From positions 504,802 through 568,801 of the forward strand of contig CAYOCJ010000001.1 of NCBI GenBank assembly GCA_964402565.1: a stretch of 64,000 nt of DNA, written 5' to 3'. This document shows, one piece after another, positions 1,081 through 53,994 of this stretch. Each line of letters begins with the position of its first letter. Positions within the stretch are counted from its first letter, which is position 1. A program made the translations under genes and the position numbers. The notes beneath the pieces were generated by a model. It did no database searches. It was not told where the DNA came from and saw only the letters and a program-made list of their open reading frames with translations. Source of the stretch: an uncultured Gammaproteobacteria bacterium (GTDB lineage Bacteria > Patescibacteriota > Patescibacteriia > UBA1558 > 2-01-FULL-52-15).

Positions 1081-1108
1081 AAAAAGGACCTTTTAGGTCC
1101 TTTTTATT
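1081..1108 (+). terminator. Rho-independent terminator after htrA
   Basis: Stem aaaggacc / ggtccttt with a tttta loop, followed by a T-run. Confidence 0.6.
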
Positions 1109-1299
1109 ATGGCCTTGACAAAAATCTCACTATATACTATGTTCACTTGTTCTATTGACAAACCCTCAAACAAGTAGGACAATGCAAACACTAAAATCTA
1201 ATGAAAAGCGACAAAAAATCCAATTAAAAATATATTTTTACCTTAGCAAAAAAGCAAGGTATTGAACCTAATTAACATCAGAATTTAAACTAAGACACT

Positions 1300-4200
1300 A
1301 TGTTAAAAAAGCTACATACCAAAAGGGGGGTACGTACCGGCTTTTACGTCTTCGTCATTGCCGGTTTAGTTTTAAATAATTTCAGTAGCATCAGGATCCC
1401 AGTGACCTATGCTGCTGACAGCGGATTCTTCGCAGCAAACGCGACCGTTGCAAGCAATAGCGTCACCAGTCCTGACAATGGCTGGGTATCTGATGATAAT
1501 CGCGCAACGTTCAATGCAACAGGCGATACCGCTGATTATAGCTTCGGAAACCTTGGTTTGCCGGCAAATGCCCAGATCGATGGCATTGAAGTTACGATCG
1601 AAGGCCAGAGATCGAGTAGCCGCAATTTGAGCGCAGCGCTATGGAATGCTTCGAACAGTAACCCAGACGCTTATAGCTCAAGCTCAACCGCAACGTTGAA
1701 CACGAATAGCGACACCGTCGTCACGCTCGGCGGACCAACATCAAAGTGGGGCAAGAACTGGGATTCAAATGATTTTGGTGCATCGTTCAAGATCCGAGTA
1801 GCTGGCGCCTCAGGCAGCGGAAACGCCCTGTTGGATCAGCTTCGAGTCAAAGTCTACTACAGCACCTTACCTCAGAGTGCTGAAAATCCATCACTTCCAA
1901 ACTCATGTGGCTTGGATGTGTCTTTAGTTTTGGACAACTCTGCATCCATCGACAACACTGAACTCGGTCAGATGAAGACTGCTTTCAAAGGTTTCGTTGA
2001 TGCATTAGCACCAGGAACTCCAACAGATTTCTCAGTCACGAAGTTCAATAGCAATGGCAGCACTGTATTGGACCCATTCTCTGCAAACGCAACAACGGTG
2101 AAGAATGCGATCGACTCTGTAACCACCTCAAGCGGTCACACAAACTGGGAAGATGGTTTGAACGTTTCTTTCGGGATCTCAGACCCGCGACCTTCTAATC
2201 CGAACGTCATGGTCTTTGCTTCTGACGGAGACCCAAACCGCAAGATCGGTTCAGTCGCTGACATTTCAGCTTTCGACGCAATGACAGCTGCTATCAATAA
2301 GGCAAATACGATCAAAGGCGCTGGCACTCGAATAATTACTCTCGGTGTCGGTAACGCTATCAATACTGCGAACTTGGTCGATATTTCAAGCGCTGACGCA
2401 AACTTCACTACAGCAAACTTCAGCGATCTGAATACAACTTTACAGAACCTCGCTCAGGAGCTTTGTGGCGGAACCATCACGGTTACCAAGAGAATTGGCA
2501 CCCCAGACAGTTCTGTTGCTGCGGGTGAAGGCTGGACATTCAATATCGGCGGAAACCCGAACAAAAACACTGACACAAATGGACAGACTCCATCAGTAAA
2601 TTTGACGAACGGAACCTACGTTGTAACCGAAACCGGCGGCCCTTCAGGCTATGCGTTCAATAGCGCAACATGCGAAGGCGCGACCAATGATGGTTCGTCG
2701 ATCGCAAATGGCGTTGAAGGAATCCAGGTTGGAACGAATGATATTGTCTCATGCACATTCTATAACACTGCAAATGCAGGAACACTAACCGTCATTAAGA
2801 ACGTTGTTGGCGGTGATGCGCAGGCATCTGATTTCAACCTAACGGTAGATAATGGTAACCCGGGATCATTCCCAGGCAGTTCAATAGGCACTGCGGTTAC
2901 AGTTGCTGCTGGAGCATCATACAATGTTGGTGAAGATCCAGTATCAAACTACTCGCCAAGCTATTCTGAAGGCTGTTCAGGTGTTATGCAGCCAGGTGGC
3001 CAGGTTGAGTGCACTGTTACCAATACATACACACCGCCTCAGGAGACAACCGGAACAGTAACCGTGATCAAAAAAGTCACTAAGGATAATGGCGGCACCG
3101 CTGAAGTGGGCGACTTTACCCTTATGGTTGGCGATACATCTGTTGTATCCGGTGAAGCTAATGCATTTTTCCCTGGGCCATACGCGGTCAGCGAAACCGG
3201 CGGCCCTTCAGGCTATGCGGGTTCATTCAGCGGAGACTGCGATGAAAATGGAAATATAAACGTTGTTGCAGGCGAGTCATATGTCTGCACCATCACCAAT
3301 GATGATATTCAACCGAAACTGACCGTTCAAAAGATCGTTGTTGGCGGTAACCTCGATGCAAATAACGTCCCCTTATTCGTGAATGGAGACCCAGTCACCA
3401 ATAATGTTACGAACGGATTTGATGCAGGGACTTACACTGTCAGTGAAACGCCGCAACCAAACTATATTCCAAGTTTCAGTGAGAATTGTCCAAATGGACA
3501 GATCTCATTGGTAGTAGGACAGGAAGCTACCTGTACCATTACGAACACCTACAATCCGCCGGTCGAACAGGACACGACCAATATCGTCGCAACTAAGATC
3601 GTCTGTCAGGATGAAGCAGACTTGCCGAACTGGGGAGAGACCGGTCAGCCGGATATCACCTCTTCGACAGCTGCAGATTTCTTAGCAACACACCCTGGTT
3701 GCCACTTGGCTCCAGACTGGACCTTCCAATACGGCTTTGCTGATAAAGAAGGCCAGGAAGGTGTCGACAAGCTGCCCGGAGATATCATCGGCGACGCAGA
3801 TGGTACGGACTCTACTGGTATGTGCAATGCACCATACTGCGGAGCTAATACCAATACCGGAACCGGCTACAGCGACTGGAAATCATTCGGACCGACAAAC
3901 GGTTCAGGTGAAGCATCAGTTTCGATCAGCGATCTTGAAGGAGCATCTTCTCTCTGGGTTCGTGAATCATTGAAGCCCGGCTATATCCCGTTCACCTATC
4001 CGCCACAGGGTCCGGATGAGAACAATGTAACTGCTGAGATCTATTGCCATAAGGATACGAACCATTACGACAACTATGACAATATTGAAGATGTCTCAGC
4101 TGGAAATACCTACTACTGTGTAGCATTCAATGCACCAAAGCCATTGACTATCGTTGCAAATAAGATCGTTTGTGAAAATGAATCAGACTTGCCGAACTGG

Positions 4201-5091
4201 GGAGAGACCGGTCAGCCGGATATCACCTCAAGTACCGCGACTGAATTCCTGGACACACATCCAAATTGCCACTTACAACCTGATTGGAAGTTCCAGTGGG
4301 GATATGGTGACAAGGATGGCCAAGAAGGCGTCGATAAGCTTCCAGGCGACTTCGTAGGTGAGGCTACTGCTGCCGGTGATTCAACCGGCATGTGCAGCAC
4401 CCCATACTGCGGTGCGAATACAGAGACAGGCCTTGGCTACTCAAACTGGAAGACTTTTGGCCCTACCGATGTAAATGGTACGACCTCAGTGAATATTTCA
4501 GACCTGCAGGGTGCTTCATTGATCTGGGTACGTGAAGTCTTGAAAGATGGGTATATTCCATTCACCTATCCGCCAGAAGCACCGGATGCTGACAATGTGT
4601 CGGCGGAGATTTACTGCAGCATGGATACTAACCACTACGATAATTACGACAATATCGCAAATCCAGAGCTTGGAAATACATACTACTGCGTAGCGTTCAA
4701 TGCTCCAAAGCCTGGTACTGATGTCTGTAACAATATCGAAGGAATTCAGTCAATTATCCCTGATGGTATGGTCTCGAACGGCGAAGGCGGTTGTGAGACC
4801 CCGCAGGATCCAGGCGGTGGTAGTTCGATCACAACCTCAGGCGGTGGTGGTGGAGGAGGAGGCGGTGGCGGAGGAATTCCGAATTTCCCGAACCAGCCAA
4901 CTGGCTCTGATAATCCAAAAGTAGAAGGTTTCTCTACAACCGTTCCTGATAACCCGACTGTTCTCGGATTCGAAGTATTGCCGAATACAGGCGGTGACCT
5001 TACCGGCTACTATGCGGCTGTCAGCACACTCTTTACGCTTATTCTCAGCACGCTCTACGTAAGCTATCGTAGACGCTCAGCGAAAGCATAA
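1300..5091 (+). CDS. Sortase-anchored surface adhesin: signal peptide, vWA domain (MIDAS DxSxS), several Ig-like/CnaB-like beta-sandwich repeats, two tandem ~189-aa Cys-rich repeats, poly-Gly linker, LPNTG sorting signal
   Basis: N-terminal hydrophobic signal (FYVFVIAGLVL). DVSLVLDNSASID vWA MIDAS motif. Repeated T-V-x-K-x-V / VGG..DA..FNL segments typical of isopeptide/CnaB-type domains. C-terminus LPNTGG followed by a hydrophobic TM segment and an RRRSAKA tail, the classic cell-wall sorting signal. A sortase gene lies immediately downstream. Confidence 0.85.
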   Translation: MLKKLHTKRGVRTGFYVFVIAGLVLNNFSSIRIPVTYAADSGFFAANATVASNSVTSPDNGWVSDDNRATFNATGDTADYSFGNLGLPANAQIDGIEVTIEGQRSSSRNLSAALWNASNSNPDAYSSSSTATLNTNSDTVVTLGGPTSKWGKNWDSNDFGASFKIRVAGASGSGNALLDQLRVKVYYSTLPQSAENPSLPNSCGLDVSLVLDNSASIDNTELGQMKTAFKGFVDALAPGTPTDFSVTKFNSNGSTVLDPFSANATTVKNAIDSVTTSSGHTNWEDGLNVSFGISDPRPSNPNVMVFASDGDPNRKIGSVADISAFDAMTAAINKANTIKGAGTRIITLGVGNAINTANLVDISSADANFTTANFSDLNTTLQNLAQELCGGTITVTKRIGTPDSSVAAGEGWTFNIGGNPNKNTDTNGQTPSVNLTNGTYVVTETGGPSGYAFNSATCEGATNDGSSIANGVEGIQVGTNDIVSCTFYNTANAGTLTVIKNVVGGDAQASDFNLTVDNGNPGSFPGSSIGTAVTVAAGASYNVGEDPVSNYSPSYSEGCSGVMQPGGQVECTVTNTYTPPQETTGTVTVIKKVTKDNGGTAEVGDFTLMVGDTSVVSGEANAFFPGPYAVSETGGPSGYAGSFSGDCDENGNINVVAGESYVCTITNDDIQPKLTVQKIVVGGNLDANNVPLFVNGDPVTNNVTNGFDAGTYTVSETPQPNYIPSFSENCPNGQISLVVGQEATCTITNTYNPPVEQDTTNIVATKIVCQDEADLPNWGETGQPDITSSTAADFLATHPGCHLAPDWTFQYGFADKEGQEGVDKLPGDIIGDADGTDSTGMCNAPYCGANTNTGTGYSDWKSFGPTNGSGEASVSISDLEGASSLWVRESLKPGYIPFTYPPQGPDENNVTAEIYCHKDTNHYDNYDNIEDVSAGNTYYCVAFNAPKPLTIVANKIVCENESDLPNWGETGQPDITSSTATEFLDTHPNCHLQPDWKFQWGYGDKDGQEGVDKLPGDFVGEATAAGDSTGMCSTPYCGANTETGLGYSNWKTFGPTDVNGTTSVNISDLQGASLIWVREVLKDGYIPFTYPPEAPDADNVSAEIYCSMDTNHYDNYDNIANPELGNTYYCVAFNAPKPGTDVCNNIEGIQSIIPDGMVSNGEGGCETPQDPGGGSSITTSGGGGGGGGGGGGIPNFPNQPTGSDNPKVEGFSTTVPDNPTVLGFEVLPNTGGDLTGYYAAVSTLFTLILSTLYVSYRRRSAKA
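3587..4713 (+). repeat. Intragenic tandem duplication (2 x ~567 bp) encoding a 6-Cys domain (KIVC..DLPNWGETGQPDITSST...CHL.PDW...PYCGANT...NHYDNYDNI...YYCVAFNAPKP)
   Basis: Two ~189-aa protein repeats with >75% identity. They include a 44-nt perfectly identical DNA stretch (3619-3662 and 4185-4228). Confidence 0.85.
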
Positions 5092-5108
5092 CAAACCAAC
5101 TGTACGGA

Positions 5109-5765
5109 ATGCAGCTCAGGAAACGATACACATTCCTTGCAATCATCATTCTGGCCATATTCGCGGTAACGCTGATATGGCCAGGGTTTGTTATTAATGC
5201 ATTAAGCGAATTCGTAAGCGGCATTAAACAGGGCAGCGACGTCATACAAAAGATACATACCCCGAGCGACATCTTGTCTGAGATCAATTTCGATGTACCG
5301 ACCGATACCAGCACGTCCACGGTCGCGTTTACACCGCCGGACGAGAATGGCGATAATCATTTGATCATACCGAGCATCGGGGTAAATGGCGAGGTTATCA
5401 TCAGCGACAGTCAAAATGCACTCAATAAAGGATTCTGGCATATTCCAGGCTCCGCAGTTCCGGGTACGAAAGGCAATATCGTTGTTTCAAGTCACCGATG
5501 GTTTCATATACCGCCGAATCCAGTAACGTTCTACCGGATCGATGAAGTCAAGATAGGCGATCCTGTCTTCTATAATTACAAAAACAAGCGCTACACGTAT
5601 CAGGTTACTGAAACGAAGATCGTCGACCCGACTGACGTGCATATCTTGGATCAGGACGAAGATAAATTGACGCTTTTTACCTGCCATCCGTTATTTTCTA
5701 CCAAGCAGAGGTATGTGGTGATAGCTACATTCGTTTCAGTCAGTGACATCCCAGCAAAGGAGTGA
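5109..5765 (+). CDS. Sortase (transpeptidase), N-terminal membrane anchor
   Basis: N-terminal TM segment (FLAIIILAIFAVTLIW). Conserved His region (NIVVSSHR). LTLFTCHP motif matching the sortase TLxTC catalytic Cys. It lies directly downstream of the LPNTG substrate gene. Confidence 0.8.
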   Translation: MQLRKRYTFLAIIILAIFAVTLIWPGFVINALSEFVSGIKQGSDVIQKIHTPSDILSEINFDVPTDTSTSTVAFTPPDENGDNHLIIPSIGVNGEVIISDSQNALNKGFWHIPGSAVPGTKGNIVVSSHRWFHIPPNPVTFYRIDEVKIGDPVFYNYKNKRYTYQVTETKIVDPTDVHILDQDEDKLTLFTCHPLFSTKQRYVVIATFVSVSDIPAKE

Positions 5766-6601: not shown

Positions 6602-6979
6602 ATGAAAGATCGGGTATTTGTCGATAGCGACAATATTTTAAACTGGATACCAGGCAATCAAACCGGCGACGTCGAAGGAACCAGCATGTCAGTGAATGTG
6701 CTGTCAGAGTTATTGGAGGAGCGCAGCCCTTCATGTGTTCTGGTTGACCTTTCGCGCGCACAGCGGCCGAACACGCTGCAGCGCCAGATCATTATCAATG
6801 GCCTGCAATCGAATCGCCACAATATTCAAAAAATCGCGCTTTTCGGTGAATCGCCTTTGATGAAAGCAGTTTCGTACTTTATCATCAATACATCGGGATA
6901 CGAGAACATGAAATTTTTCTCAAGTCGTAATAAGGCGGTGACCTGGCTCAAAGAAGGCGAACAAAAAAGCTCTACATGA
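6602..6979 (+). CDS. Hypothetical small protein, possibly STAS/SpoIIAA-like fold
   Basis: 125 aa with no strong motif. The C-terminal ...FFSSRNKAVTWLKEG resembles STAS-domain ends. Its stop overlaps the start of the next gene (ATGA), which suggests translational coupling. Confidence 0.35.
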   Translation: MKDRVFVDSDNILNWIPGNQTGDVEGTSMSVNVLSELLEERSPSCVLVDLSRAQRPNTLQRQIIINGLQSNRHNIQKIALFGESPLMKAVSYFIINTSGYENMKFFSSRNKAVTWLKEGEQKSST

Positions 6980-8061
6980 AATACGGCGAATCATCTCACG
7001 CGGTAGGCATTGATATCTCTGATGGCAGCCTTGAACTCGCAAATATTCAGGAACGTCGGGATGGCGTTCCTGTTTTGATTGATTATGCGCGAGTTACGCT
7101 GCCGGAGCATGTGATCGTGCATGGGCGCATACAGGACGAACCCTTGCTGGACGAAGCTCTCGAGGAGCTACTCGACCAGACAAGCCTCGAGCTGAGGAAT
7201 GTGTCGGTCTGTACAGCTTTGCCTGATTCTCAGATCATTACGAAAATCTTACCCTTGCCGAAAAGTCCGGAAATCCCTTCTTTTGATTCGCTGCATCAAA
7301 GCGCACAATTGCTCTATAAGAGCCTGAATTTTAGGATTGAGGATCCAGTACTGCAATGGACATTCCATGAGCTCCCTGACACGTCAGGCGAATTGACTCT
7401 TTTTGCAACAGCGGCCGATGCGGTGCATCAGTGGGAACGTTTTTTCAAAAAAGAAGGCATGGATCTCCTGAGCCTTGAAATGGAATCTCTTGCCCTCCAG
7501 CGGGCCTTTATTCAAAAGATCCCTCATAATGAATCGATTGCGCTCATTGATTTCGGTTTTAGAATGACGATCATTTCAATAGTTGATGCCAGCGGCCTTC
7601 GGTATTCGCATACCATAGATCAGGGCGGTTTTGATCTCACCACTGCAATTGCGCGGACCACCTCGGCCAAGCTCGACACTGCAGAGCGTTTGAAAATTTC
7701 AGTAGGTCTAACGAATCGGGCTGACAAACCGCTGCACGCGCTTATCACAAAAAATATCGACGACCTATTGCATCTCATTCATGCGTCCTTACAGGACTTC
7801 GGCGGTGCCGTTGACTCGATCATTATTACCGGAGGAGGAGCGAGGCTTCGGGGCATCCGTGCTGAAACCGAGCATGTGCTCAAAATTCCCACCAAGCGTG
7901 GGATTCCTTGGTTTTCACAAGTCCACCAGGTAAAAGGCCAGCTCAACTCCACACAAATTGAGACCACAAAAATGCCTTTGTACGCCGGCGCTTTAGGTCT
8001 TGCATTGCGCGGCATGAATCGATATACTCTTGCGAAAGGAATTAATTTTATCGATGAGTAA
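6976..8061 (+). CDS. PilM-like actin-fold ATPase (type IV pilus assembly protein PilM family)
   Basis: N-terminal VGIDISDGSLELA (the GIDIGS-type phosphate-1 loop of the PilM/FtsA fold). Central LTLFATAAD...LSLEMESLALQRAF. C-terminal IIITGGGARLRGI, matching the PilM LTGGGA motif. Confidence 0.65.
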   Translation: MKYGESSHAVGIDISDGSLELANIQERRDGVPVLIDYARVTLPEHVIVHGRIQDEPLLDEALEELLDQTSLELRNVSVCTALPDSQIITKILPLPKSPEIPSFDSLHQSAQLLYKSLNFRIEDPVLQWTFHELPDTSGELTLFATAADAVHQWERFFKKEGMDLLSLEMESLALQRAFIQKIPHNESIALIDFGFRMTIISIVDASGLRYSHTIDQGGFDLTTAIARTTSAKLDTAERLKISVGLTNRADKPLHALITKNIDDLLHLIHASLQDFGGAVDSIIITGGGARLRGIRAETEHVLKIPTKRGIPWFSQVHQVKGQLNSTQIETTKMPLYAGALGLALRGMNRYTLAKGINFIDE

Positions 8062-24426: not shown

Positions 24427-27042
24427 TTAGCAACCAATACTCGTACAGCCTGTTTGCGTACAAGTAATACTACATGATGGCTGCACTGGCCCATTCGCAA
24501 ATGTATTGACGCCAAACACATTGTATGAGAAAGACTTTGCTTTTGTATCCCCTGCGCAAAAGGTATAGTCAAAACGATATGGTAATGCTGGCCACGTCGC
24601 CTGAGTCGCAGGTTCATCGATAGTACAAATCTTCTTACCTACGGCAGGTAATTCCTTTCCTGAACAATTAGTGCCTTGATCAGCTTGAATAGATCCGCCT
24701 TTGAGCTGGCATACTGTCAGTGCTGAAACAAGTGCGTTTGCCGTTGATTTTGCTGATGCTACACTCGTGTTATAGAGCTGATTACCAACTCCTGCGCTAG
24801 TCTCTGCTCCTAAATTCCGGGGCGGATACCAAACATCATAATAATCTAATTTACCCGGACCTGCGGGCTCATAACCTTTTGTCACTTCATCGCCATCGGA
24901 GTAGCCATCGCCATCTGAATCTTTTTTATTTGGATCCGAACCATAGTATGCTTCGACAATATCCGGCAGCCCATCAGCATCAGTATCAACGGCTAATGCC
25001 ACCTTTGCCTCCACTGAGATCTCAGTAGCATTTGCCGTGTTGACGCCATTCACATAATTAACAGCCTCATTCACGCCAAATCCGTTCGACATCCCCATGA
25101 ATCCTCCGCCTCCATTGCTTGCCTGTTCTTTTACGCGATGCGGAATTTGCATGGTATATTTCAATGTATACGCATCAGGATTGGTCAGCTTCTCGTATAT
25201 AAACTGCTGTCCGGTGAAACCATCCTGCGGAACAGTTTTCAAGAATGGCGTTTCAGCCAGCTGCTTCTCATACTCCGGATCATTGAAAGAGTTAAAACTA
25301 TCAGGAAAGTCGATCTGAACACCTGTCGCGTTGGTATTGGTAACGGTCTTTTTCGGCGCTTTCGTGAGCTTGCCTCGCGGCGTCGTCAACTCATCGAGTG
25401 AAGCAGGATAAGCCCCGGTATAGGATTTAAACTCAGACAAGGCGCTTCGAACCAGATCTACATTGGTTTGTTGACGCTGTGCACGGTACATTTCTTTTGT
25501 CATGCCGGTAAGCGCTAGTTGCGCATCTTCGAACGATATAGCACCAGCCGGCTCCTCTACCACGACCGGAACATTGATATTGCTTAAGCTCAATGTGAGA
25601 TCAAGTCCGATCTGTTTATCCTTCAGTTTCGTAGCTTTCGCGCCCGGTACGATCCTGAAGCGGTATGACATCTGGACCGGATAACCGGTGTTCTTATCGA
25701 TCAGTATCTTTAACTTGGTATTATTTTTTATAAAGGTTAAGTACTTGGTAAAGGTATCCGTTTTCATGTACCGAAGTGATGTTTCGTCAAGCTTTACCAT
25801 GGCATCAGCTCCGAACTTATCCTGTAATTCCTTGCTCAAATGCTCATACCAGGCAGCGACTTTTGTCTCGTCATACGTAACATTGTAGGCATAGGCCTGG
25901 GTCGTCCCTAAGCTTTCATCAGGCAATGACATGTCAACTTGCAGCACTTTGTCTTCATCCATAGTTTTCAGGATCGTCTGGAACTGTTCCAGCGCCTGAG
26001 TATTCTTCTGCTGCTTATCTCCGATAAACGTACCGATATATGACAAGTCTGAATATCCTACCAAATCCTCCGGCACTGCCTTGATCCATTTATTTTTAAT
26101 GGCGGTCAGATCAATGAATAGAGACGGAAATTTGGAAACCATGCCATAGTAGGTATCGCCTTTTTTCCGCAGCTCAAACTCGGCAGCGACATTGAAGTCT
26201 CCAAACGAAGCGTCCCCTCCAAGATGAAAATTGGCGTCTGCTTTTTTTGCCTGATCTTTCGTCGACGTGCCGCCTGCTCTGAGGTTAAAACTGAAATCAG
26301 ATGGCGCATAATCGAGGTACTCATCAGCGCCCTGCTCAAGCGTCGAAACCCAGGATGGCCTATGCGGTTCACCATTAAAGTAAAAATATGATTCGCTTTT
26401 CTTAGATAAGGTCACTTTTTTGCCATCGACCTGTGTTACTTCTTTTTTGCTATAGCCGGCGACTGCTTTTACGGCATCATCAGTCTCAAACGTGACTGAA
26501 AGCGCATAATCATCATTGCCAGCGTTTAATGCATAGGTAAAATCGCTCAGGTTCTTGGCTGTGAGTGCCGGCACATCAGAAAGCTGATTTGGATATGCGG
26601 TATTGCTTTGACGGTATACCGATAATGCGGACTGGATTGACTGCGCATCAGACACCCTATTCGCATCTCGCTCATACATTTGCGTGTCATTCACAAATTC
26701 AGGAAAGGTAAGAGGCTCGAACGCAGTCGCTCCTGCTTCCCTCGGCTCAGCCTGCAGGCCGAACTTAGCTTCGTACGTTGCTGAGTTTATCGACTGAATT
26801 TTAGAAAAAAAGTTTGCAAAAGCACTTTGCTTCGAAGCAGGACCCATACCCTGGAATGGCCAGATCTTAAAATAAAAAGCGGCTCCTGCATAGGAACCAA
26901 TCACGAGGACGCCGAGTAAGACGATAATAACCATCCATGGCGTTTTTTTAGCTGCCGGCTGCAATGGCTGTGACGACTCAGGCATGGTCGTAACCGGCAT
27001 AGGCGCCTGCTGCGGCGGCTGTTGATATGGTTGTTGGTCCAT
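24427..27042 (-). CDS. Large membrane-anchored surface protein: Pro/Gln-rich N-terminus, single TM, TSP3-like Ca-binding aspartate repeats, Cys-rich C-terminal domain
   Basis: TM segment WMVIIVLLGVLVIGSYAGAAFYF. DTDADGLPD...DSDGDGYSDGDE resembles type-3 thrombospondin Ca-binding loops. Ten Cys lie in the last 100 aa. Confidence 0.6.
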   Translation of the reverse strand: MDQQPYQQPPQQAPMPVTTMPESSQPLQPAAKKTPWMVIIVLLGVLVIGSYAGAAFYFKIWPFQGMGPASKQSAFANFFSKIQSINSATYEAKFGLQAEPREAGATAFEPLTFPEFVNDTQMYERDANRVSDAQSIQSALSVYRQSNTAYPNQLSDVPALTAKNLSDFTYALNAGNDDYALSVTFETDDAVKAVAGYSKKEVTQVDGKKVTLSKKSESYFYFNGEPHRPSWVSTLEQGADEYLDYAPSDFSFNLRAGGTSTKDQAKKADANFHLGGDASFGDFNVAAEFELRKKGDTYYGMVSKFPSLFIDLTAIKNKWIKAVPEDLVGYSDLSYIGTFIGDKQQKNTQALEQFQTILKTMDEDKVLQVDMSLPDESLGTTQAYAYNVTYDETKVAAWYEHLSKELQDKFGADAMVKLDETSLRYMKTDTFTKYLTFIKNNTKLKILIDKNTGYPVQMSYRFRIVPGAKATKLKDKQIGLDLTLSLSNINVPVVVEEPAGAISFEDAQLALTGMTKEMYRAQRQQTNVDLVRSALSEFKSYTGAYPASLDELTTPRGKLTKAPKKTVTNTNATGVQIDFPDSFNSFNDPEYEKQLAETPFLKTVPQDGFTGQQFIYEKLTNPDAYTLKYTMQIPHRVKEQASNGGGGFMGMSNGFGVNEAVNYVNGVNTANATEISVEAKVALAVDTDADGLPDIVEAYYGSDPNKKDSDGDGYSDGDEVTKGYEPAGPGKLDYYDVWYPPRNLGAETSAGVGNQLYNTSVASAKSTANALVSALTVCQLKGGSIQADQGTNCSGKELPAVGKKICTIDEPATQATWPALPYRFDYTFCAGDTKAKSFSYNVFGVNTFANGPVQPSCSITCTQTGCTSIGC

Positions 27043-52740: not shown

Positions 52741-53994
52741 GTGCGCTTTCAAAAACGTCTTTTTCTGTTCATCGCGGCCGCTCTGTTGAGCGCAACTCAA
52801 CTCAGCGCCCAAGCACCGCCAGAAATGCTCAGTCTTTCCGCGCCCTACGGATACAACGGTGAGACGGTGGCGATCGACGGGCACTATCTCTTCGGTCCCT
52901 ACCAGACGACGGTGACATTCAACGGTTCTCCTGCGCTGATCATCTTCCAGAGGACCTACGGATCAGATTCACCAATCCTCCAGGAGATCGTCATGCTGGT
53001 TCCGGATGATGCCTGCTCGGGCCCAGTGTGCGTACGGACGCCGTACGGAACGACTTGCTGGCCAGATTCATTCACAGTCTGGCCGTATTCCGAAACGGAT
53101 GATGACTTCATCGGTGACCACTGCGACAACTGTCCGAGTGTAAACAACCCCGACCAGTCGGACAGCGACGGTGACGGGGTCGGCGACGCTTGTGACAATT
53201 GCCCGACCATCTACAATCCGAGTCAATCGGATTTCAACTCCGACGGCCAGGGAGACCACTGCGACAACGACGACGGCACCGTCTATCTCTCGTTGCCCGA
53301 AAAAAGTACGATCGAGTGGGACGGCGACTCAGGAGCCCATCCCTGGAACATCTACCGAGGTGATCTAGCGGAGCTCCGAGCGAGCGGAACCTATACGCAG
53401 CCTAGCGGCACGAATCCTGGAGCTGGACGAGAGTGCAGCCTGATGCAAGTTCAAACCACAGACTTCGACGTTATCAACCCCGGTGAAGTGTGGTTCTATC
53501 TCGTGAATGGTACCTACCCGAACGGGATCGAATACGCTCTTGGCGCGGATTCGAGTGGAACCATGCGACCGAACGACAATCCGTGCGGTGTTCAAACGCC
53601 TAACACATTTACGGCAAAATACTGGAACACACCAATGTACCAGTACGAGCCGCCGATGCCGACGTGGGCACCGGACATCGTGACACAGGTTCCCACGGTC
53701 GACTTCAACTGGGGGCAAGGCTCTCCAGATCCTGCCATCACCAACGACCACTTCATGGCGGAATACACGAAGTACCAATTCTTTGTAGGCGGCCCCTATC
53801 AGTTCAGGGCAAAGGTCGATGACGGAGTTCGAGTCTTCGTCGATGGCTACAGGGTCATCGATGAATGGCGCGATCAGGGTGAGCCGACCTTCTATGGCAA
53901 CATTACCCTCAACGAAGGACTGCATGCCATCAAAATCCTCTACTACGAGGATGGCGGCGGTGCTGTCATCCAGGTAAACTGGCAGCGTCAGTAG
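52741..53994 (+). CDS. Secreted protein with thrombospondin type-3 Ca-binding repeats and a C-terminal PA14 domain; GTG start; GC-rich relative to neighbours
   Basis: Signal peptide [19 protein letters not shown]. Three DxDxDGxxDxCDNCP TSP3 repeats. PA14-like [26 protein letters not shown]...[22 protein letters not shown]. Confidence 0.7.

Follow-up and report, generated by a model that had tools for sequence, protein, structure and literature searches.

A candidate wall-anchored VWA adhesin and its neighbouring sortase at a variable surface-protein locus of a Patescibacterium

Introduction

A life attached to other microbes is assumed for most Patescibacteria, and to our knowledge, type IV pili and the newly reported Pam pili aside, the molecules that make this contact are largely unknown. 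Here we analyse a 64,000-nucleotide (nt) stretch of a Patescibacterium contig (GenBank assembly GCA_964402565.1, contig CAYOCJ010000001.1, forward-strand positions 504,802 to 568,801; referred to below as the window), in which the gene for a large LPXTG surface protein with a von Willebrand factor A (VWA) domain, termed the adhesin in what follows, lies directly upstream of a sortase gene. Scans of this genome covered the 64-kb window.

Sortases are already familiar in the candidate phyla radiation (CPR). Meheust et al. 2019 reported sortases of one family from over half of the CPR genomes and linked them to MdbA/VKOR disulfide machinery (PMC6744442), and Anantharaman et al. 2016 described Peribacteria that have a sortase together with large, very Cys-rich, strain-variable extracellular proteins, for which a role in attachment was proposed (PMC4736985). 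No experimental study of a CPR sortase substrate was found in the literature searched. A 2026 preprint on a novel pilus system in CPR was considered and set aside, since it concerns donor-strand-exchange Pam pili that are unrelated to sortase.

Results

An LPXTG surface protein precedes a sortase gene

The two genes lie on the same strand exactly where the original prediction, made from the DNA letters, had placed them, and are separated by 17 nt (5092-5108; Table 1). The adhesin consists, from its N-terminus, of a signal peptide, a beta-sandwich domain, the VWA domain, four prealbumin/CnaB-like domains, two Cys repeats, a spacer with a run of 12 glycines and a Pro-rich composition, and an LPNTG anchor, and it contains 24 cysteines in total. 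Pfam matches were obtained to VWA (aa 206-380, E 2e-14), SpaA (aa 414-457) and SpaA_2 (aa 585-665). A search for homologs returned 154 proteins at E <= 1e-5, the best of them 47% identical, and all those with a taxonomic name belong to Saccharibacteria, Paceibacterota or the 'Patescibacteria group'.

Table 1 Features of the adhesin and sortase locus in window coordinates
Feature	Position	Strand	Basis or remark
Terminator-like hairpin, AAAAAGGACC-TTTTA-GGTCCTTTTT, 3' of htrA; T-run after it	1082..1108	+	Direct sequence reading
Two sigma-70-like promoter matches, TTGACA-17-TATGTT and TTGACA-17-GACAAT, 5' of adhesin gene	1115..1183	+	Consensus matches
Adhesin gene, 1263-aa LPNTG surface protein, ATG start	1300..5091	+	Open reading frame, Pfam, homolog search
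Signal peptide, aa 1-38: basic n-region, FYVFVIAGLVL h-region, VTYA/AD cleavage-like site	1300..1413	+	Hydropathy maximum of protein; site inferred
N-terminal all-beta domain, aa 39-202, matching no known family	1414..1905	+	AF2 model
VWA domain with putative metal-binding site (D212, S214, S216, T281, D309), bracketed by C203/C389	1906..2469	+	
Four prealbumin/CnaB-like domains (aa 391-492, 494-578, 585-670, 672-752), each with Lys/Glu/Asn triad and one Cys pair	2470..3567	+	
Cys-rich repeat 1, aa 757-949: CnaB-fold domain with Cys-bearing insertions	3568..4146	+	
Cys-rich repeat 2, aa 950-1139	4147..4716	+	
Short C-x21-C module, aa 1143-1165, CNNIEGIQSIIPDGMVSNGEGGC; single copy	4726..4794	+	
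Gly/Pro/Thr-rich spacer, aa 1166-1226, with Gly12 (aa 1181-1192, nt 4840-4875) and conserved VLGFE box	4795..4977	+	
Cell-wall sorting signal: LPNTG (aa 1227-1231), hydrophobic segment, RRRSAKA tail, stop codon	4978..5091	+	
Sortase gene, 218 aa, ATG start; transmembrane segment ~aa 7-29, catalytic domain aa 84-207 with H129, C192 (TLFTCHP), R201	5109..5765	+	

An NCBIfam scan of the adhesin gave no match at E <= 0.01, so the call of a sorting signal rests on direct reading and hydropathy, and the signal peptide was likewise judged by hydropathy and sequence reading. The two most hydrophobic 12-aa stretches of the whole protein are the N-terminal h-region and the segment that follows LPNTG. 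The 32 residues past LPNTG reach a 17-aa hydropathy maximum of 1.69 and end in RRRSAKA. At the other end, homologous segments begin at a conserved AADTGF. With a signal peptide, an LPXTG motif, a hydrophobic segment and a basic tail, the adhesin is predicted to be a wall-sorted LPXTG protein. Re-inspection thus bore out the LPNTG, hydrophobic segment and RRRS ending of the original prediction, and its 12-Gly spacer was found as well.

The C-x21-C module and the C-terminal spacer returned nothing usable from Pfam at E <= 10. Many VWA-headed homologs (P0012, P0017, P0021, P0024, P0025, P0028, P0045, P0048 and others in our P series) end differently, with a Cys-containing C-terminal module in place of LPXTG that shows the conserved pattern ...PTG[YL]VY-TT-R-IN-L-CP-L...

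The head carries a complete metal-ion-dependent adhesion site

The head was modelled with AlphaFold from aa 38 to 396 using a 17-sequence alignment (predicted local distance difference test score, pLDDT, 86.3; predicted TM-score 0.80), and the model places an all-beta domain in front of a Rossmann-like VWA domain. The N-terminal domain is predicted to contain beta strands only, at a pLDDT of about 85-90. Pfam returned one chance-level match to it at E <= 10 and a PDB profile search returned none; the domain co-occurs with VWA in many of the homologs.

The VWA domain carries the residues of a metal-ion-dependent adhesion site (MIDAS), D212-x-S214-x-S216, T281 and D309. In an alignment of the adhesin with 31 homologs (32 sequences), D212, S214, T281 and D309 are present in 32/32 and S216 in 31/32, which agrees with the vWA/MIDAS domain of the original prediction. 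The family model and the Rossmann-like fold together identify a VWA domain with a putative metal-binding MIDAS motif. The bracketing cysteines C203 and C389 are found in all 32 aligned sequences and may form a disulfide clamp, by analogy with the A-domains of von Willebrand factor (vWF).

The fold resembles Mfa5, PTMP1, ANTXR2, collagen VI, vWF-A3 and integrin I-domains, and also SpaC, PitA, RrgA and GBS104. Its likeness to the tip pilins is no higher than to A-domains from outside pili, and its closest relative is PTMP1, a matrix protein. Because these likenesses are spread over both groups, the domain is described here as a ligand-binding A-domain and not as a tip pilin. It is uninterrupted (aa 203-389), with the N-terminal beta-sandwich on one side and the first prealbumin-like domain on the other, each of them complete.

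The stalk is built from six CnaB-type domains

When aa 391-756 were scanned alone, SpaA_2 matched in four stretches (E 2e-18), in line with the CnaB/Ig-like repeats predicted originally. Each of these prealbumin-like domains opens with TVxK, closes with CTxTN and has YxVxE...GY at its centre. Among 337 instances found in the homologs, conservation is 97% for each of K, E and N, and 89% and 99% for the two members of the Cys pair. This Lys/Glu/Asn layout, with Lys on the first strand, a catalytic Glu and Asn on the last strand, is that of isopeptide-forming CnaB domains, and the CnaB-type domains of the adhesin would likewise be expected to form Lys-Asn isopeptide bonds.

The two Cys repeats that follow required direct pairwise comparison, as BLAST of the whole protein against itself yielded the identity match alone. 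They are 189-190 aa long with 6 Cys each, share 73% protein identity and 72-75% DNA identity, and recur with a period of 567-570 nt. No Pfam match was obtained even at E <= 10, and a PDB profile search gave one chance match. K10, E133 and N188 are invariant in the repeat (36 sequences). Given this triad and a CnaB/transthyretin-like fold, what the original prediction called a novel 6-Cys repeat is read as a Cys-decorated CnaB-type domain; it is new to Pfam and to PDB sequence searches, but its fold is already known and the domain is widespread. A full HMMER scan of 1.84 billion representatives found it in 1011 clusters at E <= 1e-3 (930 at E <= 1e-10), in 1-4 copies within large multidomain proteins. 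Most instances are ~156 aa long, whereas the version in the window has a ~35-aa insertion with an extra Cys pair. The stalk of the adhesin therefore comprises six CnaB-type domains. Kinship between the Cys repeat and the prealbumin-like domains is supported by fold and triad positions and not by sequence, hhalign of the Cys-repeat profile with prealbumin-like domain 3 having aligned only the last strand (14 columns, probability 1.4%).

Two observations concern the stability of these repeats. Two Logan assemblies (loci L003 and L004 of our L series; SRR12313479 and SRR12313480) are 100% identical to the window and represent independent assemblies of the same strain; their contigs stop inside the adhesin gene, at window positions 4200 (the start of Cys repeat 2) and 4735 (just past its end), which suggests either repeat-driven assembly breaks or population variation. 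In the related locus L005 (8292-9424, with its equivalent in L006) the two Cys repeats are identical at the protein level, compared with 73% in the window, and this points to recent duplication, gene conversion or assembly collapse in that metagenome-assembled genome (MAG).

The sortase falls outside the curated classes C, D and E

The downstream protein matches the sortase family PF04203 over aa 86-207 (E 6.6e-27, 94.2 bits against a cut-off of 26.6) and the general model TIGR01076 (sortase_fam) with 79.4 bits against 39.35. Its N-terminal transmembrane segment reaches a 19-aa hydropathy of 2.65. H129, C192 and R201 are invariant across 20 clade members and align with the catalytic residues of the solved sortases 8t28 and 8gr6. 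Family model and catalytic His/Cys/Arg residues together assign the protein to PF04203, and the membrane-anchored sortase with a TLFTCHP motif that had been predicted is consistent with these results.

Its class is a different matter. The original prediction had proposed comparison with class C and E models, and while the general sortase models were passed, the class models were not: the sortase scored 70.8 bits against a cut-off of 160 for class C (NF033745), 79.3 against 160 for class E, 78.9 against 140 for SrtD and 71.3 against 165 for class D. No class A or B model of NCBIfam was matched at E <= 0.01. In 20/20 clade members the stretch ahead of the catalytic domain lacks a DP[FWY] lid motif (a test made at the level of the motif), and none of the 20 has a C-terminal transmembrane segment, the catalytic Cys being followed by 17-30 non-hydrophobic residues. 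The best PDB sequence matches are nevertheless class C enzymes, at E of about 1e-12. Judged by these scores, the sortase lies outside the curated classes C, D and E, and its class is left unassigned.

Sortase genes are paired with diverse substrates that share a VLG box

How regularly does a sortase of this clade stand next to a substrate? In two independent metagenome loci the sortase again lies directly 3' of a VWA-LPXTG homolog. A wider sample was taken from 80 reference-genome loci, collected with a sortase-clade profile, plus L001 and L002, giving 81 sortase genes. An adjacent same-strand open reading frame with LxxT[GS], a hydrophobic segment and a basic tail accompanies 28/81 of them, mostly upstream. 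The adjacent substrates range from 180 to 1481 aa, are often very Cys-rich, and are mosaics of SdrD_B, SpaA, DUF11, DUF4215, PA14, FN3-like, beta-propeller, cadherin-like and sometimes VWA domains.

A short motif recurs in front of the sorting signal. In the C-termini of the L001-L076 substrates and the P-series homologs, 59/100 sorting-signal proteins have an [VIL]LG box at a distance of 2-9 residues before LxxT[GS], compared with 1.2% of random 12-aa windows from the same proteins. The box of the adhesin lies at 4948-4992 (aa 1217-1231), and its form in the Komeilibacteria-like clade is KVLGFE-x-LPxTGG. This VLG box may be an extended recognition element for Patescibacteria sortases. LPNTG and VLGFEVLPNTGG are candidate sorting peptides for the sortase.

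A locus of another composition was seen in L002 (1-11037; JGI Ga0172379_10000087), where two Peptidase_M73 (TasA/camelysin-like) proteins, an S26 signal peptidase, a small LAETG protein and a sortase are accompanied by a 1459-aa VWA-LPNTG protein and a second sortase. This may be a fibre-plus-sortase system of another Patescibacterium.

The head is replaced at a syntenic site in related genomes

The assembly GCA_964422585.1 (L005/L006) has ~70% DNA identity to the window and the same gene order, HtrA, X, sortase (72% identical), ExoIII, STAS-like, PilM, GT2 and Fmt, in which X is the substrate gene. X (781 aa) has in common with the adhesin the signal peptide, both Cys repeats (73% identical) and the C-x21-C module, which is present in three copies as against one in the window, and it also keeps the glycine run and the VLGFE-LPNTGG anchor. 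Where the adhesin has its N-terminal domain, VWA domain and four prealbumin-like domains, X has two DUF4215 repeats and an N-terminal region of unrelated sequence. The order X-sortase-ExoIII-STAS-PilM-GT2(-Fmt) is kept in L006, L007, L008 and L010, and X always ends in VLGFE-LPxTG. In the more distant L007 and L008, which have complete substrate genes, the domain content differs again; the substrate of L010 is cut at the contig start and shows its anchor end alone. These syntenic comparisons identify the sortase and the anchor end of the substrate as the conserved unit, and the VWA head reads from them as one of several exchangeable modules at a fixed site. No signs of mobile elements were seen around the locus, where the flanking synteny with L005/L006 is unbroken.

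Transcription, neighbouring genes and source organism

The gap of 250 nt after htrA contains the terminator-like hairpin and the two promoter matches of Table 1. The hairpin was missed by the consensus scan because extension of the stem consumes the T tail. Each promoter-like site agrees with the consensus at 10/12 positions and is a consensus-level match only. A terminator scan found no terminator-like site between the adhesin, sortase and exoIII genes, and adhesin and sortase are probably co-transcribed from a promoter in this gap.

Downstream of the sortase lie genes for ExoIII, a STAS-like protein, PilM, GT2 and Fmt. The PilM-like gene (6976-8061, +) is the third past the sortase, between the STAS-like gene and the membrane GT2; pilN and pilO are not adjacent to it, and the block is syntenic in L006, L007, L008 and L010. 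Elsewhere in the window are the peptidoglycan-related genes for YceG and an M23 peptidase, and the 64 kb contain no tRNA. Two further proteins deserve mention. In an 871-aa protein (24427-27042, -), bacterial TSP3 repeats are combined with an N-terminus that resembles T2SSG/type IV pilins and with a C-terminus rich in Cys (...CSITCTQTGCTSIGC); the protein has the look of a giant type IV pilin-like protein and would be a further attachment candidate. A 417-aa secreted-looking protein (52741-53994, +) has a PA14 domain and, under the Pfam cut-off, a weak match to the thrombospondin type 3 repeat (PF02412).

The source organism is a Patescibacterium, and the sortase locus has its closest named relatives in Candidatus Komeilibacteria, a placement consistent with the small-genome, possibly episymbiotic host that had been suggested. 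Sequences identical to the sortase (P0121) are on record in one 633-kb NCBI contig and two Logan assemblies. The record titles of several MAGs with clearly Patescibacteria-like loci (L006, L007, L014, L016, L023 and others) read 'uncultured Gammaproteobacteria bacterium', which is probably a placeholder or a wrong taxonomic label.

Discussion

We consider it likely that the two genes form a cassette of substrate and sortase through which an adhesin is covalently anchored in the wall of the Patescibacteria cell. How would such a cassette work? Adhesin and sortase would be transcribed jointly from the promoter region that follows htrA, and the 1263-aa precursor, to judge from its signal peptide, would be exported via Sec. 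Outside the membrane it could fold with up to 12 disulfides and probably with Lys-Asn isopeptide bonds in its six CnaB-type domains, as the conserved residues and folds suggest. The C-terminal hydrophobic segment and RRRS tail, both present in the sequence, would keep the protein in the membrane until the membrane-anchored H129/C192/R201 sortase, by analogy with characterised sortases, cuts LPNT|G and transfers the adhesin to an amine of a peptidoglycan precursor. The Gly12/Pro-rich spacer would then span the wall, and the six-domain stalk would lift the beta-sandwich and VWA head off the surface, where the MIDAS cation could ligate an acidic group of a matrix ligand or of a partner or host surface. 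A role in host attachment is plausible. The reported co-occurrence of CPR sortases with MdbA/VKOR (PMC6744442) was counted in favour of wall anchoring, and so were the YceG and M23 peptidase genes of the window, the close spacing of the two genes, the recurrent pairing of sortase and substrate, the conserved K/E/N triads and the lack of class C features in the sortase.

Several points weigh against this reading. The sortase fits no curated class that would point to its acceptor nucleophile, and only about a third of the sampled sortases have an adjacent substrate; a Dojkabacteria and Saccharibacteria group, in which the sortase occupies a fixed context with no substrate beside it, accounts for the bulk of the unpaired ones. 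A shaft pilin or a second sortase could lie outside the 64-kb window. Finally, cleavage, wall linkage, disulfides, isopeptide bonds, metal binding and ligand are all predictions from sequence and folds.

An alternative hypothesis is that the adhesin is a pilus tip like SpaC, RrgA and GBS104, and that the sortase joins the threonine of LPNTG to a shaft-pilin lysine, the gene of that pilin lying elsewhere in the genome. In Firmicutes and Actinobacteria, LPXTG proteins with a VWA domain serve as tip pilins, and the hypothesis also draws on the pilin-type CnaB fold and K/E/N triad of the stalk, on the class C enzymes among which the nearest PDB sequence matches of the sortase lie, and on related loci (L002, L023, L044, L065) that hold two sortases and extra small sorting-signal proteins. 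However, SpaC, RrgA and GBS104 have their VWA domain inserted into a CnaB domain, which is not the arrangement seen here, and the VWA domain of the adhesin is no closer to theirs than to A-domains unconnected with pili. The [YFW]PK pilin motif was absent from the adhesin on inspection, the window has one LPXTG C-terminus only and no shaft pilin, and in other loci the small neighbouring proteins are of DUF11 or FN3-like type and not recognisable shaft pilins. The sortase, moreover, scores well below the class C cut-off and has neither the lid nor the C-terminal transmembrane segment of that class, both of which are absent from all 20 clade members. Since these class C features are lacking and no shaft pilin lies in the window, a wall-anchored adhesin is favoured and a pilus tip is judged improbable. 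The SpaC-type, tip-pilin-like architecture with which the original prediction was headed is accordingly not supported as it stood, and the wall-anchored adhesin that it held in reserve is the better reading.

The function of the head could also be a different one. The protein might belong to a surface coat or matrix, in which VWA and Cys-rich domains serve self-association, metal capture or surface protection and in which the variability of the head reflects escape from phages or predators and not host range. The extreme variation of the head among syntenic loci, the mosaic of DUF11, PA14, beta-propeller and DUF4215 domains in the substrates, and the matrix protein PTMP1 as closest VWA relative would all suit a coat, and attachment itself is put forward as a hypothesis in the CPR literature (PMC4736985). 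A complete and invariant MIDAS is typical of ligand-binding A-domains, however, and a single-copy locus with a long stalk fits the projection of a binding head better than the formation of a coat, so that a coat role seems unlikely to us. Still less credence is given to the idea that the neighbouring sortase does not process the adhesin at all, whether its C-terminal segment is a plain membrane anchor or it is linked to an acceptor other than peptidoglycan. The class of the sortase, and with it the acceptor, is unassigned, many adhesin homologs end in a plain transmembrane segment or in other C-terminal modules that lack LPXTG, and the structure of the CPR envelope is poorly known (PMC5220378). 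Yet the gene pairing recurs across distant Patescibacteria, LPxT[GS] and the upstream VLG box are kept while the remaining protein is replaced, and the catalytic triad is invariant, which makes this explanation highly improbable beside that of a wall-anchored substrate.

The candidate wall-anchored adhesin can be compared with several known systems. In SpaC (Lactobacillus rhamnosus GG), RrgA (S. pneumoniae), GBS104 and PitA the VWA domain is a CnaB insertion, whereas here it is a contiguous N-terminal module; the locus also differs in that it lacks a nearby gene for a shaft or basal pilin, class C features in its sortase and a pilin motif, and its stalk domains would carry disulfides in addition, as their conserved Cys pairs suggest. 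In Gram-positive bacteria, Cna, SdrD and other wall-anchored stalk adhesins of the MSCRAMM (microbial surface components recognizing adhesive matrix molecules) type with B repeats have a DEv-IgG 'dock-lock-latch' A region in place of the beta-sandwich and VWA head; the stalk described here includes two Cys-decorated CnaB domains that Pfam does not model, and the host is a Patescibacterium. The type V pilus tip Mfa5, the type IV minor pilin PilB of S. sanguinis and the LapA vWFA domain depend on type V or type IV pilus assembly or on a type I secretion system, and here a sortase takes that place. The sortases and large, variable, Cys-rich proteins surveyed earlier in CPR (PMC6744442, PMC4736985) belong to the same gene category and the same superphylum; those were family-level surveys, while one substrate-sortase pair is dissected here.

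Sortases and large, variable, Cys-rich surface proteins were already known from CPR bacteria, and this work leaves that picture unchanged. What is added is modest: the head swap at a syntenic site, the identity of the repeat as a Cys-decorated CnaB domain, a sortase clade of unassigned class, and the VLG box. We tentatively raise a further hypothesis, for which the odds are against us at present: in a Komeilibacteria-like lineage, a Patescibacteria-specific sortase clade outside classes A-F would recognise [VIL]LG-x(2-9)-LPxT[GS] and, from a fixed site, serve a single 'slot' gene whose head is replaced wholesale while its anchor and stalk end are kept. The slot could then be a cassette-type determinant of episymbiont host range, comparable to the swaps of receptor-binding proteins in phages.

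Two annotations can be reused elsewhere, namely the Cys-decorated CnaB domain, which occurs in about 1000 protein clusters and has no Pfam model, and the VLG box upstream of LPxTG in Patescibacteria. For the biology of these organisms, the locus offers a concrete candidate for attachment: its MIDAS head is open to mutation, its sortase and sorting peptide are open to assay in vitro, and related genomes supply a natural head-swap experiment.

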